From the NCBI GenBank assembly GCA_002389045.1, contig DGNS01000013.1:155523-219522 (forward strand): a stretch of DNA of 64,000 nt, in the 5' to 3' direction. Below are positions 21,629 to 41,461 of this stretch, piece by piece. A program made the translations under genes and the position numbers. This DNA is from Thiotrichaceae bacterium UBA4486. GTDB taxonomy: Bacteria > Pseudomonadota > Gammaproteobacteria > Eutrophobiales > Eutrophobiaceae. Each line of letters begins with the position of its first letter. Positions within the stretch are counted from its first letter, which is position 1. The notes under the pieces are model-generated. The model was not told the DNA's origin. It saw nothing but the letters and a program-made list of their open reading frames with translations, and made no database searches.

Positions 21629-21630
21629 GG

Positions 21631-23895: not shown

Positions 23896-24642
23896 TTATT
23901 CATTCAGTAATTTCCGCAGTGCATCAGTATCAAGCAAAACGATTTCATGCCCTTTGACGTCAATTATATTGTCTTTTCTCAGCCGCGCCAGTATCCGTGA
24001 CAATGTTTCCGGTTTAATCGCAAGTCGTGATGCCAGAACGCTTTTCGGATAATCCAGGGCGATATGGGTAGCAACGGGTGAATGTTCAGGAATGGAGTTC
24101 AACAGGTGCCAGGCCAGGCGGTAGGTGGCGTTATGCAGGGTCAGGTTATCGATTTCCATGAGTTGTATATGCAGCCTTTTGCACATGGTGGCGAGCAGGG
24201 AGAAGCAGGTATCCACCGATTCCCTTAGGATATCCCTGAACCCGGCCATGTTGATCGCCAGTAACCGGGAATCCTGAATGGCGATGGCATTAACGGGATA
24301 GGTCTGGCCCTCGAAAAACGTCACTGCTTCGGCGAAAATCTGCCCTGGATCAATGATATCAATCACTTTTTCCTGACCGTTTTCAGACACCAGGTACAAC
24401 TGGATCTGACCCTTTCTTAACATATAAAAGTACTCGGCGTGGTCGCCACGATGGAACAGGTGGCGACCCGAAGCCAGGGATATGCTGTGAACCCGGGTGA
24501 GTACTTTCAACAACTGTTCATCATCCAGGGCCTTGAATAAAGGGATTGATTTGAACTCGCTGAGTAGCTCAAGGCGATTAACGGATTGATTATTATTGAT
24601 GTTTTCCACTTGACTTCGGTCAATGCTATATAATTCCGGCAA
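23896..24642 (-). CDS. Crp/Fnr-family transcriptional regulator, Dnr/NnrR type (no FNR Cys cluster)
   Basis: cNMP-binding-like domain plus a C-terminal HTH carrying the FNR-type E--SR recognition motif (PETLSRILARL). The only Cys residues are in DTCFSLLATMCK, so an N-terminal [4Fe-4S] ligand set is absent. The start is non-ATG, either TTG at 24642 or GTG at 24609. Confidence 0.85.
   Translation of the reverse strand: MPELYSIDRSQVENINNNQSVNRLELLSEFKSIPLFKALDDEQLLKVLTRVHSISLASGRHLFHRGDHAEYFYMLRKGQIQLYLVSENGQEKVIDIIDPGQIFAEAVTFFEGQTYPVNAIAIQDSRLLAINMAGFRDILRESVDTCFSLLATMCKRLHIQLMEIDNLTLHNATYRLAWHLLNSIPEHSPVATHIALDYPKSVLASRLAIKPETLSRILARLRKDNIIDVKGHEIVLLDTDALRKLLNE
24610..24623. promoter_or_regulatory. 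Perfect FNR/Dnr-type palindrome overlapping the 5' end of the regulator gene
   Basis: TTGACTTCGGTCAA is a perfect 5-4-5 inverted repeat. On the plus strand, TAGTAT at 24645..24650 lies about 31 nt from the box centre. Confidence 0.6.
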
Positions 24643-24958: not shown

Positions 24959-26323
24959 ATGGCATACCAATACGTTCTTGATATTCCTGAAGATTACCGG
25001 AGAGCCCTGGCGATTAACTGGCTCTGGCTGGCGATCATCACCCTGTTGGGAGCCGGGATATTCTCGGTCTTGCTGGTACTGTCGAGGACGCCGGTAATTG
25101 GCGGGTTGATCCCGTTTACGGATTTTTTCCATACTGCACTGGTTATCCACGTTAACTTCTCCTCGCTGGTCTGGATACTTGCCTTCGCCAGTATGCTGTG
25201 GAGCCTGAACAGCCGTCCGATTTATCCTTTTGCGGGCAAGTCAATTTTCATTCTCGTCGTTACTGCGGCTGTATTTATGGCCGTATCACCGTTCCTCGGC
25301 GACAGCAGGGCATTGATGAGCAATTATATTCCGGTACTGGACAGTTCCGCGTTCCTGACCGGGCTGGGCCTGTTTGCCCTGGGTATGGGATTGCAGGTGC
25401 TGTTCAGTATGAGTTCGATGTTTCGCGTCGGTGAAACCGTGAGCGGGCAGGGGGTCATACGCTTTGGCCTGAATTGCGCGGCCATCGGCGTTTTCATGGC
25501 GCTGGCCGCGTTTGCCTGGTCCTGGATTGAGTTACCCGCCAATCTGCCCGGGGAAACCTATTACGAGGTCCTGTTCTGGGGCGGTGGTCATGTGCTGCAA
25601 TTTACCTATACCTTACTGATGATGGTCGCCTGGTTATGGCTTTCTTCAAGCGCCGGGCTGACATTACCGCTCAGCCCCAGGGTTGCCCTGTTGCTGTTTG
25701 CAGTCGGTCTTGTTTCCATCTTCCTGACGCCGGTAATTTACTATGCATACGATATAACGAGCGTGGATTACCGGGCCTGGTTCACCCGCTTGATGAGCTT
25801 CGGCGGCAGTCTGTCCGTATTCCCGCTGGCGGTCGCAATCATCTACGCCTTGTTTCAAAAACGGGCGGACGAAACCGCTGCCTCATCCGCGCGCACGGCG
25901 CTGGTCACCTCGCTACTGCTGTTCGGGGCAGGTGGAATCATCGGTTTTCTCATTGACGGCAATAATGTAAAGATTCCGGCCCACTATCATGGCTGTATTG
26001 TCGGGGTGACACTGTCACTCATGGGCTTGACCTATCAGTTGTTGCCGGCACTGGGTTTTGACAACATCAATAACCGGCTGGCAAGCCTGCAACTCTGGGC
26101 ATACTCCTGCGGCCAGTTTCTGCATATTCTCGGTCTGGTCTGGTCGGGCGGTTACGGTGTCGAGCGCAAGGTAGCCGATGCCGCGCAGGGATTCCCGTCA
26201 TCAGGTCATGTGGCGGGCATGGGCCTGATGGGGGCGGGCGGTCTTCTGGCAACAATCGGCGGATTTCTATTCATTCTGATCGTCATCCGGTCCATGGTTG
26301 CAGGCAAGCGGCATCGGGAATGA
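24959..26323 (+). CDS. Heme-copper oxidase subunit-I-like membrane protein lacking the helix VII His-His CuB/FeB ligands
   Basis: 454-aa polytopic protein that is collinear with HCO subunit I. It has a helix II His (ALVIHVNFSSLVW), a helix VI FWGGGHVLQF and a helix X PAHYHG. There is no His at all between GGGH and AHYH. Confidence 0.7.
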   Translation: MAYQYVLDIPEDYRRALAINWLWLAIITLLGAGIFSVLLVLSRTPVIGGLIPFTDFFHTALVIHVNFSSLVWILAFASMLWSLNSRPIYPFAGKSIFILVVTAAVFMAVSPFLGDSRALMSNYIPVLDSSAFLTGLGLFALGMGLQVLFSMSSMFRVGETVSGQGVIRFGLNCAAIGVFMALAAFAWSWIELPANLPGETYYEVLFWGGGHVLQFTYTLLMMVAWLWLSSSAGLTLPLSPRVALLLFAVGLVSIFLTPVIYYAYDITSVDYRAWFTRLMSFGGSLSVFPLAVAIIYALFQKRADETAASSARTALVTSLLLFGAGGIIGFLIDGNNVKIPAHYHGCIVGVTLSLMGLTYQLLPALGFDNINNRLASLQLWAYSCGQFLHILGLVWSGGYGVERKVADAAQGFPSSGHVAGMGLMGAGGLLATIGGFLFILIVIRSMVAGKRHRE

Positions 26324-26342: not shown

Positions 26343-27308
26343 TCAACCGGAATGGTTGCGGACCTGCATGGTCAGGTTGATTACCGAAAACAGCAGCAGC
26401 ACGGCCATCAGGTTGTGCAGGGTATTGGTCCATAACGGCATATCGGCCAGGACGTTGAAGATACCCAGTGCGAATTCGGCCACGAAGACCATCACAACCG
26501 CTCTGATGGCGCCGCGCAAATGTGGATAATGTCTGCTCGCCAGCCGCCAGGATATCAACACTACTATTGCCATGACGATGGCTATGAGCCGATGAGTGTA
26601 TTGAATGATGCTGGATGAAGTATCAATCACCATACGGTCATTTTCATCCAGCGTAAGCCTGCGCAACGGATTCAGGCTGTCGGTGATGTGAGCCTTTATA
26701 TTTTCAGTATGGGAACAGGTTAACAATTCCGGGCAGGCGGAGCCGGTGTAATTGGCGCTGGCCCAGGCACCGCTGATTAACTGCAATGTCAGGGTTGCAG
26801 AGAGCAGGTAAAGTACGAAATGGCCCTCGATGATCCGGCGGGACCTCATGCGCAGGAGTTGCCGCCAGATCAGACCCGACAACACGATACCACCGAGGAT
26901 ATTGCCGAACGTGACAACGGGTAAACTGCGTGTCGGTGTCGTCATGCCGATAACGGAGAGAAAAATGACGACGAGAAACATCAGCGCCGGCAATCCGGGT
27001 GCAATAACCCTGCGATAGCGCAAGGCCAGCAACAGGATGACGAGAATATTCACGCCGAGCAGGGATGCTACGTAACGGTGCATGGCCCTGAACGTCCTGA
27101 ATTCCGAATCCGGTATTTGCAAACCCTTGATGCCATCGGCGAACGACAGCTGAGCGTAGCATTGCGGCCACGGGGAGCATCCCAGGCCGGCTTCACCCAG
27201 ACGGATATGGGTACTGAGCATGAGGATAGTCAAGGATAGTATCAGTGCAGACCCGGTCAGGCAGATGAAAATCCGTATCGGTAACCGGTATGGATTCGGA
27301 GTATTCAT
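26343..27308 (-). CDS. ctaA: Heme A synthase (COX15/CtaA family)
   Basis: 321 aa with 8 TM helices. N-terminal Cys pair (GLGCSPWPQC) and conserved His in TM helices (AMHRYVASLLG, THRLIAIVMA, LHNLMAVLL). Confidence 0.8.
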   Translation of the reverse strand: MNTPNPYRLPIRIFICLTGSALILSLTILMLSTHIRLGEAGLGCSPWPQCYAQLSFADGIKGLQIPDSEFRTFRAMHRYVASLLGVNILVILLLALRYRRVIAPGLPALMFLVVIFLSVIGMTTPTRSLPVVTFGNILGGIVLSGLIWRQLLRMRSRRIIEGHFVLYLLSATLTLQLISGAWASANYTGSACPELLTCSHTENIKAHITDSLNPLRRLTLDENDRMVIDTSSSIIQYTHRLIAIVMAIVVLISWRLASRHYPHLRGAIRAVVMVFVAEFALGIFNVLADMPLWTNTLHNLMAVLLLFSVINLTMQVRNHSG

Positions 27309-27824: not shown

Positions 27825-27838
27825 TTGACCTATGTCAA
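27825..27838. promoter_or_regulatory. Perfect FNR/Dnr-type box upstream of the HCO operon
   Basis: TTGACCTATGTCAA is a perfect palindrome. Its centre is about 90 nt upstream of the first ATG (27921). TTTAAT/TAATAA at 27862..27869 sits at -10 distance. Confidence 0.7.
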
Positions 27839-27920: not shown

Positions 27921-28088
27921 ATGTCGGAATCAGAAAAGGATACCAATGAAAACGAGGAAAAGATTCCCGTAATGCAACAACTGCTGGATAATCCGTTTTT
28001 ACTGCTTTTCCTGGGCGTGACCATACCCACTGTCTTCTATCTAATCTGGGGAATCATGGAGATCGTAACGATTCCGATTGCCAAATAA
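27921..28088 (+). CDS. Small single-TM protein, candidate HCO accessory subunit (ba3 subunit-IIa-like position)
   Basis: This 55-aa ORF is below the ORF-track cutoff: MSESEKDTNENEEKIPVMQQLLDNPFLLLFLGVTIPTVFYLIWGIMEIVTIPIAK. GGGGAGG lies 5 nt upstream of the ATG. It has one hydrophobic helix and lies 27 nt upstream of subunit II. Confidence 0.55.
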   Translation: MSESEKDTNENEEKIPVMQQLLDNPFLLLFLGVTIPTVFYLIWGIMEIVTIPIAK

Positions 28089-28115: not shown

Positions 28116-28664
28116 ATGTCGGTTACCCCTCCACAACAAAAAGTCTGGTGGAATGAACCTGTTCCCAAATCAGAACTGATCTGGGTCATCGTCGCATTTA
28201 TCTGGGGCCTGATCATGTTTTTCATGATGGTGTACTGGCATGCTTACGGGGAGCAGAACCTGTCCAACGAATCCTATCGCATTACGGCGGAAGACTACTC
28301 CGCGAAAACGGAAGCGATGGTGGAAAAATACACGGTACGTGAAGAGTCCGGTTACCCGGTCGTGCATCCACCTCCCGGCAGCGACGTCTACCTGATTGCG
28401 CGATTATGGCAATGGTGGCCTATTCTGGAACTGGAAAAAGGGCAGACATACAGGCTGCATCTTTCATCCCTGGACTGGTTGCACGGCTTTTCCCTGCAGC
28501 CGGTCAATATCAATGTTCAGGTACACCCCGACTATGAAATGGTGATTACGACCACACCGGATGTCGCCGGAGAATACGGCATTGTTTGCAACGAATATTG
28601 TGGCATCGGACATCACCAGATGCTGGGTAGATTGTACGTCGTCGATAATGGGGAGAGTAAATAA
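28116..28664 (+). CDS. Heme-copper oxidase subunit II, single-TM, CuA-containing (B-family-like)
   Basis: 182 aa with one N-terminal TM helix and a cupredoxin domain carrying a complete CuA motif (H...CNEYCGIGHHQM). Confidence 0.9.
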   Translation: MSVTPPQQKVWWNEPVPKSELIWVIVAFIWGLIMFFMMVYWHAYGEQNLSNESYRITAEDYSAKTEAMVEKYTVREESGYPVVHPPPGSDVYLIARLWQWWPILELEKGQTYRLHLSSLDWLHGFSLQPVNINVQVHPDYEMVITTTPDVAGEYGIVCNEYCGIGHHQMLGRLYVVDNGESK

Positions 28665-30352
28665 TGGCAACCAATGAACAATACAGAATATGCCAGTCGA
28701 CCGGACTCCGGGTCTATAAATCCGCCGAGAATCTGATCAAGGCCAATGCTGTAGTGGCCGTTGTATTTCTCGCCATTGGGGGATTGTTTGGTTTGATGGT
28801 CGCATTGACACGCTGGAAAGCGGTCCACCTGCTGCCCGCTGACTGGTTCTACCTGGTGCTGACCGCACATGGCATTAATGTGCTGATTGTATGGATTATT
28901 TTCTTCGAAATGGCCGTACTGTATTTTGCTTCGGCAGTATTGCTTGGCTGCCGCCTGGCGACGCCTCGCTGGGCATGGGCCGGATTCGTGCTGATGTTGA
29001 TCGGGGCCATCATGACCAATGTCGCGGTGCTGCAGGGTGATTCCAGTGTCATGTTCACCTCCTATGTGCCATTGAAGGCGGCGCCTTCCTTCTACCTCGG
29101 TATCATCCTGTTTGCGGTAGGTGCACTGGTCGGCTGTTTCGTGTTTTTCGGCACCCTGGTTCTGGCCAAGCAGGAGCGTACCTATGAAGGTTCGGTGCCA
29201 CTGGTGACGTTTGGCGCGACCGTGGCGGCCATTATTGCCGTTTTCACCATTGCCTCCGGCGCCATTATTCTGATTCCCACATTTCTCTGGTCGTTTGGAT
29301 ATATCAGTCATATCGACACACTGATGTACAGAACCATCTGGTGGGGGCTGGGGCACTCATCACAGCAAATCAACGTTGCGGCACATATCTCCATCTGGTA
29401 CCTGATATCCGCGGTGGTGCTTGGCGCCAAGCCGTTATCGGAAAAAGTCAGCCGCGGCGCGTTCCTGCTGTATATTCTGTTCCTGCAACTGGCCAGCGCC
29501 CATCATCTGTTGGTTGACCCGGGCATCAGTTCCGAGTGGAAGGTGTTCAATACCAGTTATGCAATCTATCTCGCTGTTCTCGGCAGCATGATTCATGGTC
29601 TCACCGTGCCAGGTCAGATCGAGGCGGCGCAACGAAAGAAGGGCTTCAACAATGGTCTTTTTGAATGGTTGAGAAAAGCACCGTGGGGTAATCCCGCCTT
29701 TTCGGGAATGTTCATTTCACTGATCCTGTTCGGGTTCCTCGGTGGCATCTCCGGCGTGGTCATGGGTGTTGAACAGATTAACCTCATAATCCACAACACC
29801 ATTTATGTTCCCGGTCACTTCCATGCCACCGTGGTGGCCGGTACCACCCTGGCTTTCATGGCTGTCACTTACCTGCTGGTCCCGCTGATCTTTCAGCGGG
29901 AACTGGTTTTGCCCGGCTGGGCCAAGGTGCAACCGTACGTATTCGGTATCGGTGTTGCCGGTATATCGCTGTTCATGATGGGCGCCGGCACGCTGGGTGT
30001 GCCACGACGGCACTGGGATATATCCCAGGCGGATGCGATACTGCCCTATGACTTCCCCGGCGCGGCAAACCTGATGATGGGGTTGAATGGCCTGAGCGCG
30101 CTTCTGGCCGGTGTTGGCGGTATCATGTTCGTCGTCGTCGTCGTGGGTTCGATTCTGTTCGGCAAGAAAATCGAATCCAGTTCTGAGGTGGCGAAAACCG
30201 ATCCGGCAGCGGAGGTTGCTACCAAATACGGCAGTGAGGAACATCCATCGGTGCCCGGTACGCTGGTGCTGGTTGCGGTATTCTTCATAAGTTTCGTACT
30301 TTACTATTACGTGAACTGGAAATACCTGGCGGAAATCTGGCCGTTACGCTAA
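28664..30352 (+). CDS. Heme-copper oxidase subunit I, ba3/B-family-like, with Gln in place of the cross-linked Tyr (candidate NO-reductase-type HCO)
   Basis: 562 aa. By eye it is collinear with Thermus ba3 subunit I as I recall that sequence (VPLVTF.., APWGNPAF, HNTIYVPGHFH, GVPRRHW). All six His ligands are present (TAHGINV; WWGLGH; SAHH; PGHFH). Helix VI reads HSSQQ where ba3 reads HPIVY. The ATG overlaps the subunit II stop by 1 nt. Confidence 0.9.
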   Translation: MATNEQYRICQSTGLRVYKSAENLIKANAVVAVVFLAIGGLFGLMVALTRWKAVHLLPADWFYLVLTAHGINVLIVWIIFFEMAVLYFASAVLLGCRLATPRWAWAGFVLMLIGAIMTNVAVLQGDSSVMFTSYVPLKAAPSFYLGIILFAVGALVGCFVFFGTLVLAKQERTYEGSVPLVTFGATVAAIIAVFTIASGAIILIPTFLWSFGYISHIDTLMYRTIWWGLGHSSQQINVAAHISIWYLISAVVLGAKPLSEKVSRGAFLLYILFLQLASAHHLLVDPGISSEWKVFNTSYAIYLAVLGSMIHGLTVPGQIEAAQRKKGFNNGLFEWLRKAPWGNPAFSGMFISLILFGFLGGISGVVMGVEQINLIIHNTIYVPGHFHATVVAGTTLAFMAVTYLLVPLIFQRELVLPGWAKVQPYVFGIGVAGISLFMMGAGTLGVPRRHWDISQADAILPYDFPGAANLMMGLNGLSALLAGVGGIMFVVVVVGSILFGKKIESSSEVAKTDPAAEVATKYGSEEHPSVPGTLVLVAVFFISFVLYYYVNWKYLAEIWPLR

Positions 30353-30364: not shown

Positions 30365-31231
30365 ATGATGTATAACGCGATCAAACTGGCAGCATCGGTA
30401 TTCAAGCTCAGGATTGGTTTTGCAATCATGCTGACCGGTCTTGCCGGTCTTGCAATAACCCCCGGCATGGCGCCGTCAGTTGCAGAGACCGTTCTCTTCG
30501 CTGTTGCCATATTGTTATCTTCAGCAAGCGCCGGCGCTTTTAATCAGTATGTTGAGCGCGATCTCGACGCGAGGATGAAGCGTACAAGAAACCGGCCTTT
30601 CGTGACGGGCCGGTTTCGTGCCGACAAATACTGGCTGACCCTGATATATCTGATGTTGCTGGTTTCGGTACTGGCCACCTCGATTGTTATCAATGCAATG
30701 GCCGCGCTCTATGTATTCCTGGGAGCATTCACCTACGGGGTCGTCTATACAGTCTGGTTGAAAAGGCGCACCTGGCTGAATATCGTCATCGGTGGTTTGT
30801 CAGGCAGTTTTGCAGTTCTTGCGGGTGCCGCGGTTGTTGATCCCGGCCTGTCCGCGGCGCCGGTTCTTCTGGCTGTCGCCCTTTTTCTCTGGACTCCGCC
30901 ACATTTCTGGAGTCTCGCTTTCGTTTGTGCCGATGATTACAGGTCCGCAGGTGTACCCATGCTGCCGGCGGTATTTGCAAAACCGGTGGCTGCAAGGATT
31001 ATATTTCTACACACTGTTGCTTTGGTACTGGTATCAGTATTACCGTTTTTTTATGGTCTCGGCTGGATCTACCTTGTCGGAGCACTGGCAGGCGGATTGT
31101 ATTTCCTGAAGAAAAGTTATGATCTCGTCCGCCGGCCATCTGTAGCGACAGCACGCGCCAACTTCAAGGCATCCCTTGTTCAATTGACACTGTTACTGTG
31201 TGCATGTGTTCTGGATGTAGTATTTGTCTGA
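30365..31231 (+). CDS. ctaB: Protoheme IX farnesyltransferase (heme O synthase)
   Basis: 288-aa UbiA-family membrane protein with the NQYVERDLDARMKRTRNRP motif. Confidence 0.9.
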   Translation: MMYNAIKLAASVFKLRIGFAIMLTGLAGLAITPGMAPSVAETVLFAVAILLSSASAGAFNQYVERDLDARMKRTRNRPFVTGRFRADKYWLTLIYLMLLVSVLATSIVINAMAALYVFLGAFTYGVVYTVWLKRRTWLNIVIGGLSGSFAVLAGAAVVDPGLSAAPVLLAVALFLWTPPHFWSLAFVCADDYRSAGVPMLPAVFAKPVAARIIFLHTVALVLVSVLPFFYGLGWIYLVGALAGGLYFLKKSYDLVRRPSVATARANFKASLVQLTLLLCACVLDVVFV

Positions 31232-32099
31232 TTCATCCGGTAACCATGTGCTGTTCCCTATCAAAAAATCACTGATAAATTCATTACCGGTCCTGTGTGC
31301 CGTAATTGCCCTCTGGGCAACCGGTCTGCGACCTGTTGTTGCCATGGATGAGCATACGCACACGGCAGACAGGTATGATAAGGACCAGGCACTGGAGTTC
31401 AGCCAGTCAGCGTTGAACCGGACTATAGGTGACTATGCGTTCGTCAATCAGGACGGGAAACCTGTAAGCCTGTTACAATACAGGGGGAAACCATTGATTG
31501 TCAGCCTTGTCTATACCAGTTGTCATCATGTCTGTCCGATGCTGACCAGCCATCTGGATGAGGTGGTGGATATCGCCAGGGAGGCACTGGGGCATGACAG
31601 TTTCTCGGTTGTAACCATCGGCTTTGATACGGCGGTTGACAGCCCTGAACGCATGCGGCTTTTTGCCAGGGAGCGGAATATCGATTTCAGGGGCTGGGAT
31701 TTCCTCAGTGCGGATGCGGAAACGATAGAAGCATTCAGTAATGATATCGGCTTTATTTTTTTTGAATCGGCGAAGGGTTTTGATCACCTGTCCCAGACAA
31801 CGCTGCTTGATGCGCAAGGTCGCGTTTACCGGCAGATATACGGCGTGCAGTACGAAGCTCCCGTCCTGGTTGAGCCGCTCAAGGAACTGGTGTTCGGCAA
31901 GTACAGCGAGGCAACTCTTGTAGAAGGCTGGATCAACAACATCCGCCTTTTCTGCACGCTGTATGATGCCCGTTCAGGACGTTATTACTTCGATTATTCG
32001 ATATTTATAGGACTTATTATTGGTATTGTTATCCTCGTTTCCATTGCGGTATTTATCATACGCTCATGGCGACAACACACACCCGACAGTAACAGGTAA
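31224..32099 (+). CDS. senC: SCO1/SenC copper chaperone with an extra C-terminal TM helix
   Basis: 291 aa with an N-terminal anchor and a thioredoxin fold carrying the CxxxC motif (YTSCHHVCP) and a downstream His. Overlaps ctaB by 8 nt. Confidence 0.88.
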   Translation: MSDSSGNHVLFPIKKSLINSLPVLCAVIALWATGLRPVVAMDEHTHTADRYDKDQALEFSQSALNRTIGDYAFVNQDGKPVSLLQYRGKPLIVSLVYTSCHHVCPMLTSHLDEVVDIAREALGHDSFSVVTIGFDTAVDSPERMRLFARERNIDFRGWDFLSADAETIEAFSNDIGFIFFESAKGFDHLSQTTLLDAQGRVYRQIYGVQYEAPVLVEPLKELVFGKYSEATLVEGWINNIRLFCTLYDARSGRYYFDYSIFIGLIIGIVILVSIAVFIIRSWRQHTPDSNR

Positions 32100-32102: not shown

Positions 32103-33677
32103 ATGTCTGCTATCAAAGCCGTGCTCAGGAAAGGGTTCGAAACCATTGAGGACCTGTTCGACAGGATTTTTGGCGCAAAAAACAATCCTTTCTATCAGCT
32201 TGGGGCCCTGGGATGGTTTTATTTCTGGATTGTCGTGGTCAGTGGGATCTATGTGTATATCTTCTTCGATACCGGCGTTACCCAGGCTTATAAGTCACTT
32301 GAATACCTGACGCATGAACAATGGTATGCAGGCGGGGTCATGCGCAGTCTGCATCGTTATGCCTCGGATGCACTGGTTGTGATGATGATGGTGCATATGT
32401 TAAGAGAGTTTGCCATGGACAGGTTCCGGAGTTCACGCTGGTTTGCCTGGTTTACAGGCGTACCCATGTTATGGCTGGTGTTTGCCGCGGGTATTTCCGG
32501 ATACTGGATGATCTGGGACCAGCTTGCCCAGTATATTGCTATCACAACCGCGGAATTCCTGGATGCCCTGCCAGTGTTTGGCGAATCCATTGCCAGGAAC
32601 TTTGTCACCGATGCAAAACTGAGCGGACGGTTTTTTACGCTGATGGTTTTTGTTCACATTGCCTTGCCACTGATCCTGCTCTTTATCATGTGGATACACA
32701 TTCAGAGGCACGCATCACCAAAGGTCAATCCACCAAGGACGCTGGCTCTTGGCACATTCGCAATGTTGCTCGTTGTTTCCTTTGTCAAACCGGCGCTAAG
32801 CCAGCCCCCCGCGGATTTGAACTATGTGCCTGCGACGGTAAATCTGGACTGGTTCTACATGCCGATATACCCGGTTCTGAACAATGTCTCGGGTGTTACG
32901 GTCTGGATCGCCCTGGTGGCGGCCACCGTTTTTTTGATGATGATGCCATGGTTGCCACCGGGCAAACGTCATCCGGTTGCGGTTGTCAATCTGGATAATT
33001 GTAACGGCTGTGGCCGTTGCGCGGCTGATTGCCCGTTCAGTGCCATTACCATGGAACCCCGTTCCGATGGCAGTGCCTACCAGCTGGAAGCTGTTGTGCA
33101 TGCGGATCACTGTACCAGTTGCGGGATATGCGTGGGTTCCTGTCCCACGGCGACACCGTTCAGGACAAAATCCGATTTGTCTCCCGGGATTGAATTGCCC
33201 GAGCATCAAATCAGTGAGCTCAGGGATAAAACCATTGCGGCTTCCGGCAAAATGACCGGCAATGACAGGATTATTATATACGGTTGTGATAACAGTCTTG
33301 ATGCAACCGACGTTATTGATGATAAAACGCAGGTGCTGACCATGCCATGTGTCGGCATGCTGCCGCCATCATTTATTGATTATGTTTTATCCAGAAATCT
33401 TTTCGATGGTGTATTCCTGACCGGTTGCCGGCAAGGCGATTGCAATTACCGCCTTGGCCTTAAATGGACCGATGCCCGCCTGGCGGGTGAACGCGACCCG
33501 CGTCTGCGAAAACGGGTCAACGCGGATCGGGTCAGTAAATACTGGGCAGGATTGACACGGCATAAGGAATTTTTCAGAAAGTTGACGGCTTTTCGTAAAC
33601 GGCTGGCTGCTATGGGGCCAGAACAGGACAGCGGCCAGCAGGGTAAAAAAACCGGGGTTGCGGATATCAATGCTTGA
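32103..33677 (+). CDS. Fusion protein: dihaem cytochrome b (bc-type N-terminal domain) + 2x[4Fe-4S] ferredoxin + MvhD/FlpD-like domain
   Basis: 524 aa. It has two H-x13-H pairs in TM helices (HRYASDALVVMMMVH and HIALPLILLFIMWIH). Two CxxCxxCxxxCP motifs follow (CNGCGRCAADCP, CTSCGICVGSCP). The C-terminal segment is IIIYGC...LTMPCVGMLPPSFIDYVL...GVFLTGCRQGDCNY, as in the methyl-viologen-reducing hydrogenase delta subunit. Confidence 0.8.
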   Translation: MSAIKAVLRKGFETIEDLFDRIFGAKNNPFYQLGALGWFYFWIVVVSGIYVYIFFDTGVTQAYKSLEYLTHEQWYAGGVMRSLHRYASDALVVMMMVHMLREFAMDRFRSSRWFAWFTGVPMLWLVFAAGISGYWMIWDQLAQYIAITTAEFLDALPVFGESIARNFVTDAKLSGRFFTLMVFVHIALPLILLFIMWIHIQRHASPKVNPPRTLALGTFAMLLVVSFVKPALSQPPADLNYVPATVNLDWFYMPIYPVLNNVSGVTVWIALVAATVFLMMMPWLPPGKRHPVAVVNLDNCNGCGRCAADCPFSAITMEPRSDGSAYQLEAVVHADHCTSCGICVGSCPTATPFRTKSDLSPGIELPEHQISELRDKTIAASGKMTGNDRIIIYGCDNSLDATDVIDDKTQVLTMPCVGMLPPSFIDYVLSRNLFDGVFLTGCRQGDCNYRLGLKWTDARLAGERDPRLRKRVNADRVSKYWAGLTRHKEFFRKLTAFRKRLAAMGPEQDSGQQGKKTGVADINA

Positions 33678-34173
33678 ACCACGTCTCATTTTCGGCCAGA
33701 TAATAGCTTATGGCATATTTGCAATCGTGCTCGGCTATTTCTCCAACTCACCGGCTTATACCTATCACGACCCGGAAAAGGCGCTGTTAATGGTGAGTTT
33801 CAGTCATGCCAGCCAGACAAAAGAAGAGTGTCGGCGTTTTACCCAGGAAGAACTGGCGGAACTGGCGCCCAATATGCGCCGCCCGATGGATTGTCCAAGG
33901 GAGCGAGTTCCTGTATACCTGGAAATAACCATGGATGATGAAGTTGTCGTGAGTAATTCCTATTCACCAACGGGTCTGGCAAAAGACGGTTCAACATCGA
34001 TTTATGAAAGTATTCCTGTGAAACCGGGGAAACACGAGCTGGTTTCCAGGATGCGAGACAGCCGGCGTAAGGAAGGTTTCGATTACACGAGTAAAATTAC
34101 AGTCGACCTGGAACCCAGAGAGCTTTTCGTAATTGATTTCAGAAAAGAGCTGGGTGGTTTTTATTATAAATGA
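33670..34173 (+). CDS. Hypothetical N-terminally membrane-anchored protein
   Basis: 167 aa from the ATG at 33670, which forms an ATGCTTGA overlap with the upstream stop. One TM helix is followed by a soluble domain containing two Cys. I did not recognise a family. Confidence 0.6.
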   Translation: MLEPRLIFGQIIAYGIFAIVLGYFSNSPAYTYHDPEKALLMVSFSHASQTKEECRRFTQEELAELAPNMRRPMDCPRERVPVYLEITMDDEVVVSNSYSPTGLAKDGSTSIYESIPVKPGKHELVSRMRDSRRKEGFDYTSKITVDLEPRELFVIDFRKELGGFYYK

Positions 34174-34182: not shown

Positions 34183-34569
34183 ATGAGTTTGGTTGAGTGG
34201 CGCGAGGAATTCAGAACGGGGATTGATGAAGTAGATTTCGAACATAAGGAGTTGATCGAGTTAATCAATAATACTTATAAAGAAGCCTCTGAAAAAGGCA
34301 CCTCAGACGCTCTGGATGAGGGCCTGGGTGAAATATTTTCAAAAATTTCGGCGCATTTCGCTCTTGAGGAAAAGATAATGCGTGAGCTTGAATATGACCA
34401 GTATCAGGATCACAAGGAAGATCACGAACGGTTGCTGGATAGCATCAGGGATATCATGGATGATGTTTCAAGGCTGGATGAAGAGAAGTTCGGACAGAGC
34501 CTGAAGGACTGGTTTGTTATTCACTTCAGTACCAGGGATGCGAGAATGCATAAACAACTGCAGAGGTAA
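34183..34569 (+). CDS. Bacteriohemerythrin-like protein
   Basis: 128 aa. The N-terminus W.EEF.TGIDEVDFEHKELIELIN is typical of hemerythrin-like metal-binding domains. Further H/E/D ligand positions are present (HFALEE, HKEDHERL, HFSTRD). Confidence 0.85.
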   Translation: MSLVEWREEFRTGIDEVDFEHKELIELINNTYKEASEKGTSDALDEGLGEIFSKISAHFALEEKIMRELEYDQYQDHKEDHERLLDSIRDIMDDVSRLDEEKFGQSLKDWFVIHFSTRDARMHKQLQR

Positions 34570-34688
34570 CCTGTGCCGATTGATGCATGGTTTTACCGCT
34601 GCTGTCCGGTCGCACGATATTCGCTGCGGCCTGAATGATTCCCGGTGCGAGAGTACAGGGTGATTCAATAACCACAGGAGAAACCGCA

Positions 34689-34991
34689 ATGATAAAAACA
34701 CGCAGTATTTTGTTGTACTCACTTATGGCCTGCATGCCGGCTGTCTCATCGGCTGGTGATGCCGAAGCCGGCAAGGCCAAATCATCCACCTGTGCTGCCT
34801 GTCATGGTGCCGAGGGTATCAGCCCGAATGACATGTGGCCCAATCTTGCGGGCCAGAAAGAAGGTTACCTGGTCAAGCAGTTAAAGGACTTCAGGGACGG
34901 TAATCGTAAGGATCCCATGATGGCGCCTATGGCTTCGCCGCTCAGTGATGATGACATTGCAAATCTTGCCGCCTACTTCAGCAGCTTGTAA
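34689..34991 (+). CDS. Periplasmic monoheme class I cytochrome c
   Basis: I chose the ATG at 34689, which has AGGAG upstream. It has a signal peptide, a CAACHG heme site and a distal Met region (PMMAPMA). Confidence 0.85.
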
Positions 34992-35033: not shown

Positions 35034-35627
35034 TTATCTCTCGCCCACGGCAGCACTCGGATCAACAGATCGCATGTCAGGAAGGGAGTGCGCCACTCCT
35101 TTGTGACAGTCAATACAGGTTTGTCCTTCCTCAAATGCCACGATATGTCTGTCGCGCGCACGGCGGCCCTGGGCCATGTAATCCATGGATTTGAAATCAT
35201 GACAGTTCCGGCATTCCCGTGAATCTGTTTTTTTCATGGCGTCCCAGACATGCGTGGCCAGTTCCAGGCGTTTGGCTTCGAATTTTTCCGGAGTATCTAT
35301 ACTCCCCAGCGCCTTGTGCAACAGTTCATTGCTTGCCCGGATCTTGCGTACTATCTTGTGATGCCATTCTTTAGGGACATGGCAATCGGGGCAGGTGGCA
35401 CGTACACCGGTACGGTTGGAATAGTGAATGGTATTCTTGTACTCGCGATAAACATTTTCTTCCATCTCATGACAGGATATGCAAAAGGTTTCGGTATTGG
35501 TTGCTTCCATTGCCCAGTTGAATCCACCCCAGAACATGATGCCGAAGATGAATGCTCCTATAGCAATGGTAATTACCGAAAACCTGCCAAGAAAAGACCT
35601 GAACCACAGATACGATGATTTAAACAT
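35034..35627 (-). CDS. napC: Tetraheme quinol dehydrogenase NapC (NapC/NirT family)
   Basis: 197 aa with an N-terminal TM anchor and four CxxCH sites (CISCH, CPDCH, CRNCH, CIDCH). Confidence 0.9.
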   Translation of the reverse strand: MFKSSYLWFRSFLGRFSVITIAIGAFIFGIMFWGGFNWAMEATNTETFCISCHEMEENVYREYKNTIHYSNRTGVRATCPDCHVPKEWHHKIVRKIRASNELLHKALGSIDTPEKFEAKRLELATHVWDAMKKTDSRECRNCHDFKSMDYMAQGRRARDRHIVAFEEGQTCIDCHKGVAHSLPDMRSVDPSAAVGER

Positions 35628-35731
35628 TGTTCATTTCCCTGCTTTCATTTTATTGAAGAGTCCCCGGCCACTGCGCCGCTCCGGTTGCATTGGTTTCAAT
35701 TCAGGACTGTGTGCCGGTTATGAATGGTCAT

Positions 35732-36199
35732 TCAGTGCTGCTGTATCGCCCTTACCGGTTCAAATTCGTTATCCACGAGGGGTTTTGCATTGACCTGCGG
35801 GACATGACACTGATTGCAGAAATAGCGCCTGGCGGCGACGTTGGCCTGTACATTTCTGTCGCGGTCCTCAAAATGGGTCTGGCTGATCTTGGTGGCGCCG
35901 GATTCCTTGTAATTGGCCCAGCTGTGGCAGGTCAGACACTTGTTGAATTTGACATTGATCACATAACCCTCGATGGAATGCGGGACCAGTGGCGGTTGTT
36001 GCACATAATCACGCGGAATGGGATCACGATCCGGCTGCCACTGTTTCAGTTCCGGTGCGGTGTCCGGTTCATCTATCATGGTTTCACCGCGCAGGGATTT
36101 GACTTCGGTTGTATCAGCAGCCGCAGCGAACTTCACTGCACTAGCGGTGATTGTGAACTGCAGTAAAATGATCAGCAGATAGATACGCTTCTTTTTCAT
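35732..36199 (-). CDS. napB: Diheme cytochrome c NapB
   Basis: 155 aa with a signal peptide and two CxxCH sites (CLTCH, CNQCH). Overlaps the napH stop. Confidence 0.9.
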   Translation of the reverse strand: MKKKRIYLLIILLQFTITASAVKFAAAADTTEVKSLRGETMIDEPDTAPELKQWQPDRDPIPRDYVQQPPLVPHSIEGYVINVKFNKCLTCHSWANYKESGATKISQTHFEDRDRNVQANVAARRYFCNQCHVPQVNAKPLVDNEFEPVRAIQQH

Positions 36200-37092
36200 G
36201 TCATTGCCTCACCCTGGTTTGTAGTTACTGGGGTTGTCCGGTGGTCGAATCGCTGTGTCAGACTGAATACATCACGGTTACAGACATCGAGACAGCGAAA
36301 GCAGTTGGTACAGTTTCCGGAAAGGATCAGCGGTGTGCTGCCGGCAGTATCTGGTTTCAATGCCGGTTTGATCACCTGTGGTTCGGGACAGACGCGAAAG
36401 CAGTCCATGCAGTCGTTACATTGATCCCGGCGGATGGCGGATACCCGCAGCAGGCTGATTTGTCCGGGGATACTGTAAAAAGCGCCTACCGGACACAGAT
36501 GCCCGCACCAGCCATGCCTGCTGACGAACACATCGAACAGAAATATGCCGATGATGAATATCCAGGCCATGCCGAAGCCGAACAGCACGCCTCGATACAC
36601 CATGGACACCGGGTTCAGCAGTTCCCAGGCGATAGTGCCGGTAACGGCGGCAACCGCCAGCGACACGCCCAGTATCCAGTAACGAGTGGATTTGCCGAGG
36701 CGCCAGCCGTTACCGGTAATGCCGAGTGTTCTCCGGCACCATGCAGCCACGTCGGTGACGATATTGATCGGGCAAACCCAGGAGCAGTACACACGTCCGC
36801 CGAGGATTATGTACGCGCCGAGTACGATAAGGGTGCCGGTGATCGCCGTGATACCGGGGACATGCCCGGCAAACAATGACTGCAACACTACGTATGGGTC
36901 GGTCAACGGTAGTACATCCAGTGTCCGGCTCGAAGCCAGGCTGCCCTTGACGATCCAGATCCCGGCCAGCGGTCCGAGCAGGAAGATTCCCAGGATACCC
37001 AGCTGTGTCAGGCGCCTGAAGACCAGCCAGCGGTGCAGCGCCCAGCCATTTTTTTCGCGGTGTTGCCCTGGGCCTGTATCGAGTACTCTCAC
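36196..37092 (-). CDS. napH: Membrane-bound ferredoxin-type quinol dehydrogenase component NapH
   Basis: 298 aa with 4 TM helices, CxxxCP motifs (CSWVCP, CGHLCP) and C-terminal 4Fe-4S motifs ([23 protein letters not shown]). Confidence 0.9.
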
Positions 37093-37946
37093 TGAACTTC
37101 CCCGGAGTGCCGGTTCAGGGTTTTCAGTGGATCACCGGCAAATGGTGTTTCGCCCGTGTCCTGTTTCAGACCCGCTCCTCCGTGTTCGTACTGTATTCCC
37201 TGTGGCAGGTTGTACTGATGTTCCGTGTCCGGGGTGACCAGGCTCCTGCCGGCTTTGCGTTTTTCCTCCCAGCCCATGCGGTAGTGTCCTGCGGCTTCGC
37301 CCTTCGCCAGTTTGCGGGGAAAGACCTTGACCGCGGCTTCCGGCAACACACAGGCGTATTCGCATTTACCGCAGCCGGTGCAGGCATCCGAATGTACAGT
37401 GGGCAGGAACAATGCGTGCTTGCCGCTGCGCGGGTTATGCAGCATTTCCAGAGTGATGGCCTCGTCTATGAGCGGGCACACCCGGTAGCAGACATCGCAG
37501 CGCAGACCCTGGAAATTCAGGCAGGTCTCCTGATCAATCAGTGCAGCGAGCCCCATGCGGGCGTCATCGATATCCTGCAGATCCGGATCCAGCGCGCCGG
37601 TGGGACAGGCCTTGACACAGGGAATGTCCTCACACATCTCGCAGGGCACGTCACGCGCGATGAAATACGGCGTGCCGGTGGTGACGTCTTCAAGAAAGCC
37701 GGCCAGACGCAGGGTATCGTAGGGGCAATCGCGCACGCACAGTCCGCAACGGATGCAGGCACCACCGAACTCATGCTCATCGATGGCACCGGGCGGACGT
37801 ATGGCGCCGGCCGGCAGGGAACTGGCCTTGCCGGAGTAAATACCCAGGCCCGTGGCCAGCAGTCCGAAACCGCAGACGGCCCCGGCGCTGTCGAGCAGAA
37901 ATTTTCTGCGTCCGGGAATGGTGCTATGCCCGTTTGATGTCATCAT
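37089..37946 (-). CDS. napG: Periplasmic ferredoxin-type protein NapG
   Basis: 285 aa with a twin-arginine signal (GRRKFLL) and four 4Fe-4S Cys motifs. Confidence 0.9.
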
Positions 37947-37958
37947 CCAGTGTCACTC

Positions 37959-40517
37959 TCAGGCTTCGCGAACGACCTTACAGGCGCATTTCTTGAAATC
38001 TGTTTCCTTGGAGATCGGACAGGTGGCATCCAGCGTCAGTTTGTTTACCAGGCGGCTGGCGTCAAACCAGGGAATGAAGACCAGGCCTTCCGGGGTGCGG
38101 TTCCTGCCGCGGGTTTCAACACGCAAACTGATCTCGCCCCGGCGTGTCTGTACCCTGGCGACCATGCCCCGGCGCAGGTTGCGTTTTCTGGCGTCGTTCG
38201 GATGCATGAACACTACGGCATCGGGAAAGGCGCGATAAAGTTCCGGCACACGCCGGGTCATGGACCCGGAATGCCAGTGCTCCAGCACCCGCCCGGTACA
38301 GAGCCACAGGTCATAGTCGTTATCCGGTTCCTCCGCGGCGGGTTCATAGGGCAGGGCGAAGATCCAGGCCTTGCCGTCGTCCTTGCCATAAAATTCGATC
38401 CCGGCGCCCTTTTTCACGAACGGATCGTAGCCTTCACGATAGCGCCACAGGGTTTCCTTGCCGTTCACTACCGGCCAGCGCAAGCCCCGGGTTTCATGGT
38501 AGTGATCGAATTCGCCCAGATCGTGGCCCTTCTTGGGGCCCTCCAGACCGAAGCGGCGGTATTCCTCGAACAGGCCTTTTTGTACATAAAAGCCGAAATG
38601 CTGCATTTCATCGTTGTCGTAGTGATGACCGCGGCTGTCAGTAACCATGGCTTGCGGGTATTGATCAACCTGGCCGTTTTTATACAGCACTTCGTAGAGC
38701 GTTTTCCCTCGATACTCCGGTTTTTTGTCCAGCAGTGCCTGTGGCCAGATTTCTTCCATTGTGAAGCGTTTGGAAAATTCCATTATCTGCCAGAGATCGG
38801 ATCTGGCTTCACCGGGCGCTTTGACCTGCTGGCGCCAGAACTGGGTGCGACGCTCGGCATTGCCATAGGCGCCTTCCTTCTCGGTCCACATGGCGGTCGG
38901 CAGGATCAAATCGGCGGCCATGGCGGTGACGGTGGGGTAGGGATCGGAGACGACGATGAAGTTGTCCGGATTGCGGTAACCGGGAAACGTCTCATTGTTC
39001 ATGTTCGGGGCGGCCTGCATGTTGTTGTTGCACATGACCCAGTACGCATTCAGCTTGCCGTCCTTTAACATGCGGTTTTGCAATACAGCGTGGTAGCCCA
39101 CCTTGCCGTTCAGCGTCCCCTGCGGCAGTTTCCAGACCTGCTCGGTGAATGCACGGTGTTTTTCGTTATTGACCACCAGATCGGCGGGCAGCCGATGGGC
39201 GAAGGTGCCGACCTCGCGTGCCGTACCGCAGGCCGACGGCTGACCAGTCAACGAGAAGGGACTGTTACCGGGCTCGGAGATCTTGCCGGTGAGCAAGTGC
39301 ACGTTGTAGACCATGTTATTGACCCAACTACCCCGGGTATGCTGATTGAAACCCATGGTCCAGTAGGAAGTGACTTTTCTGTCCGGGTCAGCGTAGAGTT
39401 CGGCCAGTTCCTGCAAATCCCTGGCCGGGACCCCGGAGAGTCTGGATACGTTTTCCAGGTCATAGTCAGCAACAAATTCTGCAAACTCTTCAAACGAGAT
39501 GGCTTGTGATCCTATGGTGTCGGCACGGCTCTTGTTGTTTTTCGCGCTGACCTCAAGCGGATGATCCGGGCGCAGCCCGTAGCCGATGTCCGCATTGCCG
39601 AGCCGGAAATTGACATGGTTCTTGATGAACTCCTCGTTGACGTTGCCGGACTGGATGATGTGGTTACAGATGTAGTTGAGGATGGCGAGATCCGTCTGTG
39701 GCCGGAAAACAATGCCGAGATCGGCCAGTTCGAAATTACGGTTTTCAAATACCGAGAGCACGGCGACCTTGACATCATGCCCGGTCAGTCGGCGATCAGT
39801 GAGGCGTGACCAGAGTATGGGATGCATCTCAGCCATGTTTGCGCCCCAGAGTACGAATGCATCGGCATGTTCCAGGTCGTCGTAACAGCCCATGGGTTCA
39901 TCGCTGCCGAAAGTGCGTATGAATCCGGCCACGGCCGAGGCCATGCAGTGGCGCGCGTTGGGATCGATATGATTGCTTCTGAAGCCGGCTTTCATCAGTT
40001 TTGAAGCCGCGTAGCCTTCCCACACGGTCCACTGCCCGGAACCGAACATGCCTACCGATGAGGTCAGTTCTTCCGGCGCCTTGCCCTGGTTGGCGGCCAG
40101 ATCCTTTTTTATGGCGGCTTTGAACTTTTCCGCCATCACATCAAAGGCTTCATCCCAGCTTACCGGGGTAAATTCACCGTTCTTGTCGTAGTTACCGTTT
40201 TTCTTGCGCAGCAACGGTTGTGTCAGGCGATCCTCACCGTACATGATCTTGGACAGGAAATAGCCCTTGATACAGTTCAGACCACGGTTCACCGGCGCAT
40301 CCGGATCGCCCTGGGTGGCAACAATGCGGCCGCCTTTTGTACCGACGAGTACGCTGCAGCCGGTACCGCAAAAACGGCAGGGCGCCTTGTCCCAGCGGAT
40401 TTTTTCATCCTCGTGTGCGGCCATGACCCGGCTGATGCCGGGTAGATTGATACCTGCCGCCGCCGCGGTGGCAAGAATGGCATTACTCTTGACAAAGTCT
40501 CGTCGGGTCAGCTTCAT
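37959..40517 (-). CDS. napA: Periplasmic nitrate reductase catalytic subunit NapA
   Basis: 852 aa with a Tat signal ([11 protein letters not shown]), an N-terminal 4Fe-4S motif (CRFCGTGC...C) and a molybdopterin oxidoreductase body. Confidence 0.97.
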
Positions 40518-40780
40518 GATGACATCTCCTCGTTCGCGTCATCCTCTTCATAATGCTGGTAAACAACCGCAGCGGAGAGAATGTGTTCGTGTGTCTGTAA
40601 CTCGTTTAACAGGTAACCGGTTTCTTCACGGGTTTGTTTTTCGACCGTGATCACCATGCGCCCGTCCGGCATAACCTTATGGACTTCAACACCGTCTTCA
40701 TTGTTGAGGTAATCGAGAACTGCCGCGCGATGTGCAGGCAGGCTGTGGATCAGCAGGCCACTGATATTGATGACGGACAT
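40514..40780 (-). CDS. napD: NapA chaperone NapD
   Basis: I chose the ATG at 40780 ([15 protein letters not shown]...), giving 88 aa, which is NapD-like in length and has an acidic C-terminus. An ATGA overlap joins it to napA. Confidence 0.85.
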
Positions 40781-41286
40781 GGTGTGTCTCCATTTGCGAT
40801 TGCAGGGGGCTGCCTGTGCATGGTAATTGACTGCACCGGGCATACGGCTACACATTCACCACAACCGGTGCAGGTCTCGGAGTTGATCTGTGGCCGGGCA
40901 ACACCACCGGGCTGTAATTTGAAACAGATTGCAGCACTGTTGCAGGCATCGCCGCAGACCCGGCAGGTTACGGCGTTCACTGCCAGGCAGGTGTCGCCGA
41001 TACCGGCTTTCAGATCCCAGGGGACGGTATCGGTATCGAACTCAACCAGCGCGCCATCCGGGCAGGCCGCCGCACAGGCGTTGCAGAACGTACATCCACC
41101 CTGGCTGAAATCGATTTCCGGGAAGCGACCTGAACCGCGGATGATAATGTGTTCCGGGCAGGCCTCGATGCAGGCTGCACAACGGCTGCAGGCTGCGGTG
41201 AATTCATCCCCGGGAAGAGCTCCGGGTGGCCGTATCGAAGCCCTGTGAGGGCCAAAATAGCCAGTCAGGAATTCGCGTCTGTTCAT
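40750..41286 (-). CDS. napF: Cytoplasmic ferredoxin-type protein NapF
   Basis: 178 aa with an N-terminal RREFL motif and three or four 4Fe-4S Cys clusters (CSRCAACIEACP, CTFCNACAAACP, CRVCGDAC, CTGCGECVAVCP). Confidence 0.85.
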   Translation of the reverse strand: MNRREFLTGYFGPHRASIRPPGALPGDEFTAACSRCAACIEACPEHIIIRGSGRFPEIDFSQGGCTFCNACAAACPDGALVEFDTDTVPWDLKAGIGDTCLAVNAVTCRVCGDACNSAAICFKLQPGGVARPQINSETCTGCGECVAVCPVQSITMHRQPPAIANGDTPCPSSISVAC

Positions 41287-41447: not shown

Positions 41448-41461
41448 TTGATGTATGTCAA
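41448..41461. promoter_or_regulatory. Second FNR/Dnr-type box in the nap upstream region
   Basis: TTGATGTATGTCAA. Its centre is about 168 nt upstream of napF, and its centre-to-centre distance to the first box is 90 bp. Confidence 0.5.

Follow-up and report, generated by a model that had tools for sequence, protein, structure and literature searches.

A cytochrome b, ferredoxin and MvhD fusion protein forms a four-module unit with a periplasmic beta-sandwich and accompanies eNOR-type haem-copper enzymes

A stretch of 64,000 nucleotides from Thiotrichaceae bacterium UBA4486 (GenBank assembly GCA_002389045.1, contig DGNS01000013.1, positions 155,523 to 219,522 of the forward strand), referred to below as the window, was analysed with respect to one open reading frame (ORF) at positions 32103-33677. 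The gene encodes a conserved membrane redox protein, in which a two-haem cytochrome b of the bc1/b6f type, with a probable Qo-like pocket on the periplasmic side, is fused to a two-[4Fe-4S] ferredoxin domain and an MvhD/FlpD-type domain. Together with the product of the next gene, here called orf171, this fusion protein makes up a four-module unit consisting of cytochrome b, ferredoxin, MvhD and a membrane-anchored periplasmic beta-sandwich. It serves haem-copper enzymes of the eNOR type and the B family as a dedicated accessory. The gene and its three modules are as follows.

32103..33677, plus strand: fusion of cytochrome b, two [4Fe-4S] motifs and MvhD, ATG start, 524 amino acids (aa); Pfam, NCBIfam and homologue architecture
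32103..32972, plus strand: cytochrome b module, residues 1-290, with six transmembrane (TM) helices; Pfam, hydropathy, PDB profile matches and invariant residues
32976..33155, plus strand: two-[4Fe-4S] ferredoxin domain, residues 292-351; Fer4_7, match to the HdrA2 C-terminus and eight invariant Cys
33255..33626, plus strand: MvhD/FlpD-type [2Fe-2S] domain, approximately residues 385-508; FlpD match, MvhD chains in the PDB and Foldseek

Modules, ligands and spread of the fusion protein

Pfam matches were scored against the curated gathering cut-offs and NCBIfam matches against the equivalog cut-offs. All three domains proposed in the first-pass annotation, which had been made from the sequence alone, were confirmed by Pfam above cut-off: Cytochrome_B (PF00033) over residues 28-200 (E 1.2e-20, 74.6 bits against a cut-off of 27.2), Fer4_7 over residues 299-350 and FlpD (PF02662) over residues 403-505 (E 5.5e-12, 46.2 bits against 22.3). 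A sub-threshold match to the C-terminal cytochrome b/subunit IV family was found for residues 236-285. In NCBIfam, residues 292-508 matched the ferredoxin-plus-MvhD end of HdrA2 (571-775 of 777). For the cytochrome part the best NCBIfam models were of the b6 type (ExtP, PRK03735 and SoxC), all below their equivalog cut-offs, and the protein could not be assigned to any of the curated cytochrome b equivalogs (ExtP, b6, SoxC, QcrB), the top score being 108.7 bits versus 290.

The two H-x13-H pairs noted at first could be placed at H84/H98 and H185/H199. According to bc1 numbering, H84 and H185 would be the ligands of haem bL, and H98 and H199 those of haem bH. The CxxCxxCxxxCP motifs span residues 300-311 and 337-348, and the twelve Cys of the protein are located at positions 300/303/306/310, 337/340/343/347 and 395/416/442/447. 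In an alignment of 79 sequences with 27-53% identity, all four haem His, the eight ferredoxin Cys, C395 and C416 are invariant, and C442 and D249 are conserved in at least 90%. Among close relatives C395, C416, C442 and C447 are all invariant. Judged by these motifs, the protein carries predicted sites for two haems and three Fe-S clusters.

A profile of the fusion family, when compared with the PDB, matched cytochrome b6 (E 1.6e-23) and yeast mitochondrial cytochrome b, the latter over residues 24-284, as well as the MvhD chains 9sw2_D and 5odc_D (E 1e-12 to 3e-11) and the ferredoxin domain of HdrA. Residues 213-283 align with residues 43-114 of b6f subunit IV, PEWY being matched by LDWF, and the Qo-type ef loop reads LDWFY, including D249. 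Based on this alignment, the cytochrome part corresponds to b6 extended by helices E and F, the first two of subunit IV, with a Qo-type loop. In the AlphaFold2 (AF2) model of the whole fusion, the MvhD part had 5odc_D as its top Foldseek match (TMt 0.71), and the membrane part matched bc1 cytochromes b.

Homologues were collected by a word-indexed protein database search (E<=1e-5) and by an exhaustive HMMER scan of 1.84 billion representatives (E<=1e-30). The first search returned 4971 proteins; the best 120 of them, which were inspected, are mostly 500-550 aa long, with a few fragments of 441-445 aa, and show the same domain set. The second gave 536 representative clusters, and the architecture, described earlier as unusual, is thus common. 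When modules were tallied over the 150 best representative clusters, cytochrome b, Fer4 and MvhD were found within one chain in 111. The possibility of a split-gene artefact, raised in the first-pass annotation, was checked with these data. Since thousands of homologues keep the modules in one chain, a frameshift artefact is excluded, and it is virtually out of the question that an assembly or sequencing error or a decaying gene has joined three really separate proteins: the full-length homologues come from independent assemblies and keep all ligands, and the only split seen, that between the fusion and orf171, is itself conserved.

Database names of the homologues include 'hydrogenase iron-sulfur subunit' and 'cytochrome b N-terminal domain-containing protein', the former of which is misleading for this family. 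No heterodisulfide reductase or [NiFe] hydrogenase gene was found in the operon, among the sampled large ORFs of the window or in the annotated related loci. A literature search returned no paper describing the family, apart from a table entry for one Chloroflexi ORF, listed as combining cytochrome c, cytochrome b6, an Fe-S domain and FlpD (PMC8756737).

The fourth module and the haem-copper operon

The gene that directly follows the fusion supplies the fourth module.

33670..34173, plus strand: orf171, 167 aa from the ATG at 33670, with one TM helix and a periplasmic beta-sandwich

Its start overlaps the last codons of the fusion gene by 8 nt (ATGCTTGA). The exact 167-aa sequence is present in the database, together with 206 homologues, which are all labelled hypothetical and have no Pfam domain; for a set of 38 homologues, no Pfam match was obtained even at E<=10. 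AF2 predicted one TM helix and a beta-sandwich with a pLDDT of 89.8, a fold for which no PDB match was found at E<1e-3. Nearly all of the best 120 homologue clusters are 165-178 aa long and adjoin the three-module gene. In 71 of the 150 representative clusters of the fusion family, the four modules are found in one chain, and 40 have three modules, as does the window protein; many relatives reach 690-720 aa because the beta-sandwich module is fused at their C-terminus, as it is in most other lineages. Two motifs, H/N-M-R and C-x-R-E-R, are conserved in orf171. A copper site formed by His46, Cys54, Met69 and Cys75 was considered and rejected, since no more than about half of the representatives have the Cys pair, and Chloroflexota have lost it.

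Hydropathy analysis of the fusion protein revealed six TM helices in the orientation of cytochrome b. This places its C-terminus in the cytoplasm, which fits the insertion of Fe-S clusters in a protein without an export signal. Independent evidence for the topology was obtained from a Chloroflexota locus (L010), in which the beta-sandwich follows a seventh TM helix and runs on into a cytochrome c domain. As this domain must be periplasmic, the beta-sandwich is located outside and the Fe-S tail inside.

The following genes surround the unit.

27921..28088, plus strand: 55-aa ORF with a single TM helix at the head of the operon, possibly a small subunit; sequence, conserved in 54 loci
28116..28664, plus strand: subunit II with the full CuA motif CNEYCGIGHHQM; NCBIfam CoxB and NosZ C-terminal matches
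28664..30352, plus strand: haem-copper subunit I, putatively of eNOR type; Pfam COX1 and ba3 alignment
30365..31231, plus strand: CtaB-type haem O synthase (UbiA family); Pfam
31224..32099, plus strand: SCO1/SenC copper-site assembly protein with a CHHVC motif; Pfam and motif
34183..34569, plus strand: bacteriohemerythrin; Pfam and NCBIfam
34635..34991, plus strand: monohaem cytochrome c with a signal peptide; Pfam and sequence
26343..27308, minus strand: CtaA haem A synthase, divergent from the operon; Pfam
24959..26323, plus strand: subunit-I-like protein of 454 aa without the CuB His-His pair; weak COX1 match and His pattern

The operon runs from the 55-aa TM ORF through subunit II, subunit I, CtaB, SenC, the fusion, orf171 and bacteriohemerythrin to cytochrome c, with intergenic gaps of -8 to +65 nt. 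The stop codon of senC (TAA, 32097-32099) is separated by 3 nt from the ATG of the fusion at 32103, as had been stated before. The bacteriohemerythrin has no signal peptide and is therefore cytoplasmic.

Conservation of this order was followed in a synteny set of 85 proteobacterial-type loci (49-90% identity), with the loci that have enough flank as denominators. From subunit II to hemerythrin the order hardly varies over about 80 loci, CtaB being the optional member. SenC immediately precedes the fusion in 76 of 76 loci, and orf171 follows it in 74 of 76. The eNOR-type subunits II and I lie upstream in all 45 loci, and the Gln motif described below is present in every subunit I of the set. 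Hemerythrin is located downstream in 57 of 61 loci and CtaB nearby in 29 of 45; cytochrome c is found downstream in 8 of 56, belonging to the closest relatives only. These counts bear out the membership in a haem-copper operon that had been claimed from the window. A metagenome scan yielded the 80 closest relatives, and the diversity came from representative clusters and contig look-ups. Distant four-module relatives from SAR324, Thermodesulfobacteriota and others (31-45% identity) adjoin eNOR-type subunit I, CtaB and SenC as well. Among Chloroflexota, three loci have an eNOR-type partner and four a genuine B-family oxidase with the Tyr. The fusion is therefore linked to B-family-type haem-copper enzymes, mostly eNOR.

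The enzyme of the window is itself probably an eNOR. In an alignment, its subunit I has GHSSQQ where ba3 of Thermus thermophilus has GHPIVY; at this Tyr site Gln is typical of eNOR, Asn of sNOR and Asp of gNOR (PMC8756737 Table A4). A CuA-type subunit II is present, and CtaA and CtaB are encoded nearby. An sNOR, known from the norSY-senC-orf1 cluster of ammonia oxidisers, was considered for the enzyme and ruled out, the residue at the Tyr site being Gln and not Asn. The eNOR of Rhodothermus marinus is a proven nitric oxide (NO) reductase with haem As, and eNOR operons often carry CtaA (PMC11214002). Around the operon, genes of a denitrification island and other genes are found.

23896-24642: CRP/FNR-family regulator, upstream of the operon
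15709-23695, minus strand: nirS-type nitrite reductase cluster, with three cytochrome d1-domain proteins and a radical-SAM gene
35034-41286, minus strand: napFDAGHBC, downstream of the operon
51015-53066, plus strand: anaerobic ribonucleotide reductase

Among the ORFs annotated in the window no norCB was seen, and the eNOR is therefore probably the NO reductase of this nirS/nap island.

Some further observations concern the operon and its surroundings. In 54 related loci the 55-aa TM ORF is likewise found immediately ahead of subunit II, and it could encode a third, small subunit of the eNOR-type enzyme. SenC is long (291 aa), with a hydrophobic C-terminal helix besides its N-terminal anchor and a weak TlpA-like match. 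A palindrome resembling an FNR/DNR box (TTGACCTATGTCAA, 27825-27838) precedes the first operon ORF by about 80 nt, and a similar box lies upstream of napF (41448-41461). Promoter and terminator scans gave no more sites than were found in shuffled sequence. Beside the nir genes, a 472-aa ORF (14253-15674, minus strand) has no Pfam match at E<=1e-5.

A possible transmembrane electron wire and alternative functions

The same cytochrome b, with 40-54% identity to that of the window, occurs with several different tails and partners. A Fer2-FAD-NAD(P) tail is present in P0162 and L106, a flavodoxin-FAD-NAD(P) tail in P0161, and other relatives have Fer2 alone or the beta-sandwich alone (P0201). In L106 the Fer2-FAD-NAD version stands in the position after SenC that the fusion has elsewhere, with an orf171 homologue behind it; in L103 a NuoF-like gene lies directly downstream of the fused gene. 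Fusions of the cytochrome b to a homologue of the subunit-I-like protein were found in both orders (P0263 and P0183), the homologue in P0263 being 52% identical to that of the window, and a gene for such a protein adjoins the cytochrome b family in four loci (L103, L105, L106, L108). In the subunit-I-like protein all three His that bind haem and one CuB His are retained, with Ile/Tyr in place of the CuB His-His pair. It has no subunit II gene beside it, gave no PDB match by sequence and recurs in the eNOR clusters of distant lineages.

Two arrangements were seen in addition. Locus L108 (3695-13798) has two cytochrome b paralogues in one cluster, with PCuAC and CtaG between them; the Fer4-FlpD paralogue is followed by an orf171 homologue and a subunit-I-like gene, and the flavodoxin-FAD-NAD(P) paralogue sits between SenC and an NnrS gene. 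NnrS, PCuAC and CtaG were searched for in the window, and none was found there. In the Chloroflexota loci L010 (11290-15501) and L011 (2540-7762), the fusion adjoins Rieske/cytochrome b operons with cytochrome b6, subunit IV and a Rieske protein. They also encode an NAD(P)H flavoprotein that resembles GltD and has additional [4Fe-4S] motifs, and in this arrangement they recall the unusual anammox Rieske/cytochrome b complexes.

The four-module unit is tentatively regarded as a transmembrane electron wire, which would take electrons from a donor in the cytoplasm to the periplasmic face and a haem-copper partner. The Fe-S tail would serve as an electron-input cassette, with electrons entering the distal [2Fe-2S] cluster of MvhD from a soluble cytoplasmic donor that is not encoded in the window. 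They would then pass the two [4Fe-4S] clusters, haem bH and haem bL, and leave via the periplasmic Qo-like pocket and the beta-sandwich to a haem-copper-type partner. One possible partner is the eNOR, with cytochrome c and CuA as intermediates; another is the CuB-less subunit-I-like protein, to which electrons would go straight inside the membrane. The Qo-like pocket may hold a quinone that acts as a relay or as a second input. A distal docking role of the [2Fe-2S] cluster is suggested by the ferredoxin-then-MvhD order, which matches the HdrA2 C-terminus and the solved MvhD chains. An outward polarity is suggested by the NAD(P)H-type tails of the relatives, from which outward flow is downhill, and a haem-copper-type acceptor by the fusions to the subunit-I-like protein and to cytochrome c. 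The wire is further favoured by the conserved haem and cluster ligands, the topology, the synteny with eNOR-type genes, the subunit-I-like neighbours, the cytochrome c gene that the window and its closest relatives have behind the unit, and the lack of a Rieske partner.

The first-pass annotation had proposed a quinol-to-FeS wire feeding the CuA enzyme. The wire, with its two haems and three Fe-S clusters, and the link to a haem-copper enzyme are retained here. The feeding of CuA by the Fe-S part is not, because the tail is cytoplasmic and CuA periplasmic, so that the one cannot feed the other directly. Likewise, the account of three modules was correct for the modules themselves and missed that the unit is larger by orf171, that the enzyme is eNOR-type with a Gln, and that the tail is interchangeable.

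Several points weigh against the wire. A search of the window for NuoF-, GltD-, FNR- or CPR-like homologues gave no hit, and thus no cytoplasmic donor. From the conserved Qo-like Asp one would expect quinol/quinone chemistry, which a wire does not strictly need. A subunit-I-like gene lies within about 8 kb of the fusion in only 7 of 23 well-flanked loci, and the fused gene and the haem-copper genes are transcribed separately in two loci (L110, L112). The eNOR of R. marinus reduces NO with artificial donors, and such a partner is not mentioned for it (PMC11214002). The AF2 model of the whole fusion is of low confidence (pLDDT 62.5). Lastly, the constant adjacency to SenC and CtaB, together with the PCuAC, CtaG, second Sco, CcdA-like DsbD_2 protein and copper P-type ATPase that adjoin the fusion in other lineages, fits a role in maturation about as well. 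The absent donor, the quinone chemistry suggested by the Qo-type Asp and this company of maturation genes are the reasons why the wire is held tentatively.

In such a maturation role, the unit would supply reductant for cofactor insertion into the haem-copper enzyme, either by periplasmic reduction of Cu(II) to Cu(I) or of SenC/CuA thiols, or by reduction of Cu(II) in the cytoplasm, as an analogue of CcoG or of Fre/Dcytb. Besides the invariant position after SenC and the neighbours named above, this is favoured by the conserved motifs of orf171 and by the haem protein CrpH, which likewise supports the function of a haem-copper enzyme. CcoG (FixG), a membrane protein whose gene adjoins those of the oxidase, has two [4Fe-4S] clusters on the cytoplasmic side and ends in an Ig-like domain in the periplasm (PMC7558416), and this layout of Fe-S clusters, TM helix and periplasmic domain is the same as here. 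Even so, neither the fusion nor the 38 orf171 homologues gave a Pfam match to CcoG/FixG, and no similarity to the FixG_C domain was detected by Pfam or by structure. Apart from the cluster ligands, the tail lacks conserved Cys or His that might coordinate copper, and the Cys pair of orf171 is as unevenly distributed as described above. A copper reductase would hardly account for the fusions to the subunit-I-like protein and to cytochrome c, the array of NAD(P)H reductase cassettes looks made for sustained electron flow, and assembly genes occur in haem-copper operons anyway. Maturation, which the first-pass annotation had named as its alternative, is regarded as a somewhat unlikely function, though as a serious rival to the wire.

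The conserved Qo-type loop is also compatible with a flow in the opposite direction, in which quinol would be oxidised at the periplasmic pocket and both of its electrons would travel by way of bL, bH and the Fe-S clusters of the tail to an acceptor in the cytoplasm whose potential is moderate or high, as in NarI. The acceptor might be the hemerythrin, kept ferrous in this way, or CtaA, whose reaction requires both O2 and electrons. No soluble protein of the cytoplasm is encoded in the operon other than hemerythrin, which is widely conserved downstream of the fusion. CtaA or CtaB are recurrent neighbours, CtaA also in distant lineages, and in L110 the fused gene is close to CtaA with one small ORF between them. 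The haem As of eNOR and the frequent CtaA of its operons (PMC11214002) agree with an electron supply to CtaA. The Chloroflexota loci, in contrast, lack hemerythrin, CtaA is within reach in only 6 of the 23 well-flanked loci, and NAD(P)H-binding tails would run the flow the opposite way. From the side of CtaA, it is of relevance that mitochondrial Cox15 depends on ferredoxin and ferredoxin reductase, and that Fer2-FAD-NAD and flavodoxin-FAD-NAD modules are typical reductase partners of oxygenases. By bc1 chemistry, on the other hand, the first electron of quinol is hard to pass to the low-potential bL without a Rieske centre. A quinol-driven outlet to the cytoplasm is for these reasons considered clearly unlikely.

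The Qo loop and the cd-helix region kept in the family could also point to a bifurcation of quinol electrons in the Qo-like pocket without a Rieske protein. One electron would then go to a periplasmic high-potential acceptor and on to NO or O2, and the other through bL, bH and the tail, so that low-potential ferredoxin or NAD(P)H would be formed in the cytoplasm, pulled by NO or O2 reduction. In this case a denitrifier would gain low-potential reductant without reverse electron transport. The family is invariably found with terminal reductases of very high potential (eNOR or ba3-type), NAD(P)-linked flavoproteins occur as its tails or neighbours, and the periplasmic module of L010 bears a cytochrome c. 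For anammox Rieske/cytochrome b complexes, a comparable role in forming NAD(P)H has been proposed (PMC12954380). On the opposite side, the window and 106 of the 109 related loci gave neither a Rieske homologue nor a Rieske motif, no redox cofactor is evident in the proteobacterial beta-sandwich, and the window encodes no flavoprotein or ferredoxin acceptor. To our knowledge, no Rieske-less Qo bifurcation has been described. This explanation is improbable, and the least probable of the functional ones. The electron wire towards the periplasm is accordingly kept as the preferred, tentative proposal.

The newly identified haem-copper NO reductase families, including eNOR, account for about half of the NO reductase abundance in nature (PMC11214002), and such families thus matter for much of N2O production. 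The present family is a near-universal companion of eNOR in Gammaproteobacteria, SAR324, Thermodesulfobacteriota and Chloroflexota, and is a candidate for an electron-input or biogenesis component. Exchange of electrons between haem bH and cytoplasmic carriers was hitherto only postulated, for anammox and similar complexes, and the family offers a simple test system of one or two genes for it.

Comparison with known systems

With bc1 and b6f complexes, the fusion protein shares the fold and family, the four haem His with H-x13-H spacing and, probably, a PEWY-like ef loop. It differs from them by the lack of a Rieske and a cytochrome c1/f partner, by its six helices, by LDWF in place of PEWY and by its cytoplasmic Fe-S C-terminus. 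ExtP of Geobacter, the best NCBIfam label, is itself paired with the Rieske protein ExtO. SoxC of the Sulfolobus SoxABCD complex is a Rieske-less cytochrome b homologue that serves as the electron-entry subunit of a co-encoded haem-copper enzyme. The SoxC model matches residues 31-199 of the fusion, but with 41 bits against a cut-off of 740, and the protein is not a member. Moreover, SoxC carries no Fe-S/MvhD tail, and SoxA has no CuA, whereas subunit II of the window has one.

The C-terminus of HdrA2 and MvhD of the Mvh-Hdr system contain the same unit of two [4Fe-4S] clusters and one [2Fe-2S] cluster in the same order; here, a denitrifier has this unit joined to a cytochrome of the membrane. 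NarI/NarH, HdrE/HdrD, QmoC and DsrM/DsrK are known cases in which a cytochrome b with two haems is connected to Fe-S proteins of the cytoplasm and thereby couples the quinone pool with redox reactions there. These use the unrelated NarI-type fold, whereas the fusion is bc-type with a quinone pocket of the Qo kind, and the proposed wire would in principle be NarI/NarH run in reverse. NOX/FRE ferric-cupric reductases and MsrQ, whose working the proposed wire would also resemble, pass electrons from cytoplasmic flavin and NAD(P)H through a two-haem TM domain to the outer face, similar to the flavin-tailed relatives P0161 and P0162. Their haem domain, however, has an unrelated fold, and the window protein has Fe-S clusters instead of flavin.

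CcoG is encoded beside a haem-copper enzyme and a copper ATPase, comparable to locus L012. It has no detectable homology to the membrane part of the fusion or to the beta-sandwich, and it possesses neither haems nor an MvhD domain. The anammox-type Rieske/cytochrome b complexes likewise combine cytochrome b with cytoplasmic Fe-S flavoproteins, and the Chloroflexota relatives adjoin such operons; in those complexes a Rieske protein is retained, and the Fe-S flavoprotein forms a subunit of its own. Every domain family of the unit is thus already known, as are Fe-S-wired cytochromes of the NarI fold, Rieske-less cytochromes b like SoxC and assembly proteins of the CcoG type. New is a unit that constantly accompanies eNOR and in which a bc-type cytochrome b bears an Fe-S/MvhD or flavin tail in the cytoplasm and is combined with a beta-sandwich in the periplasm.

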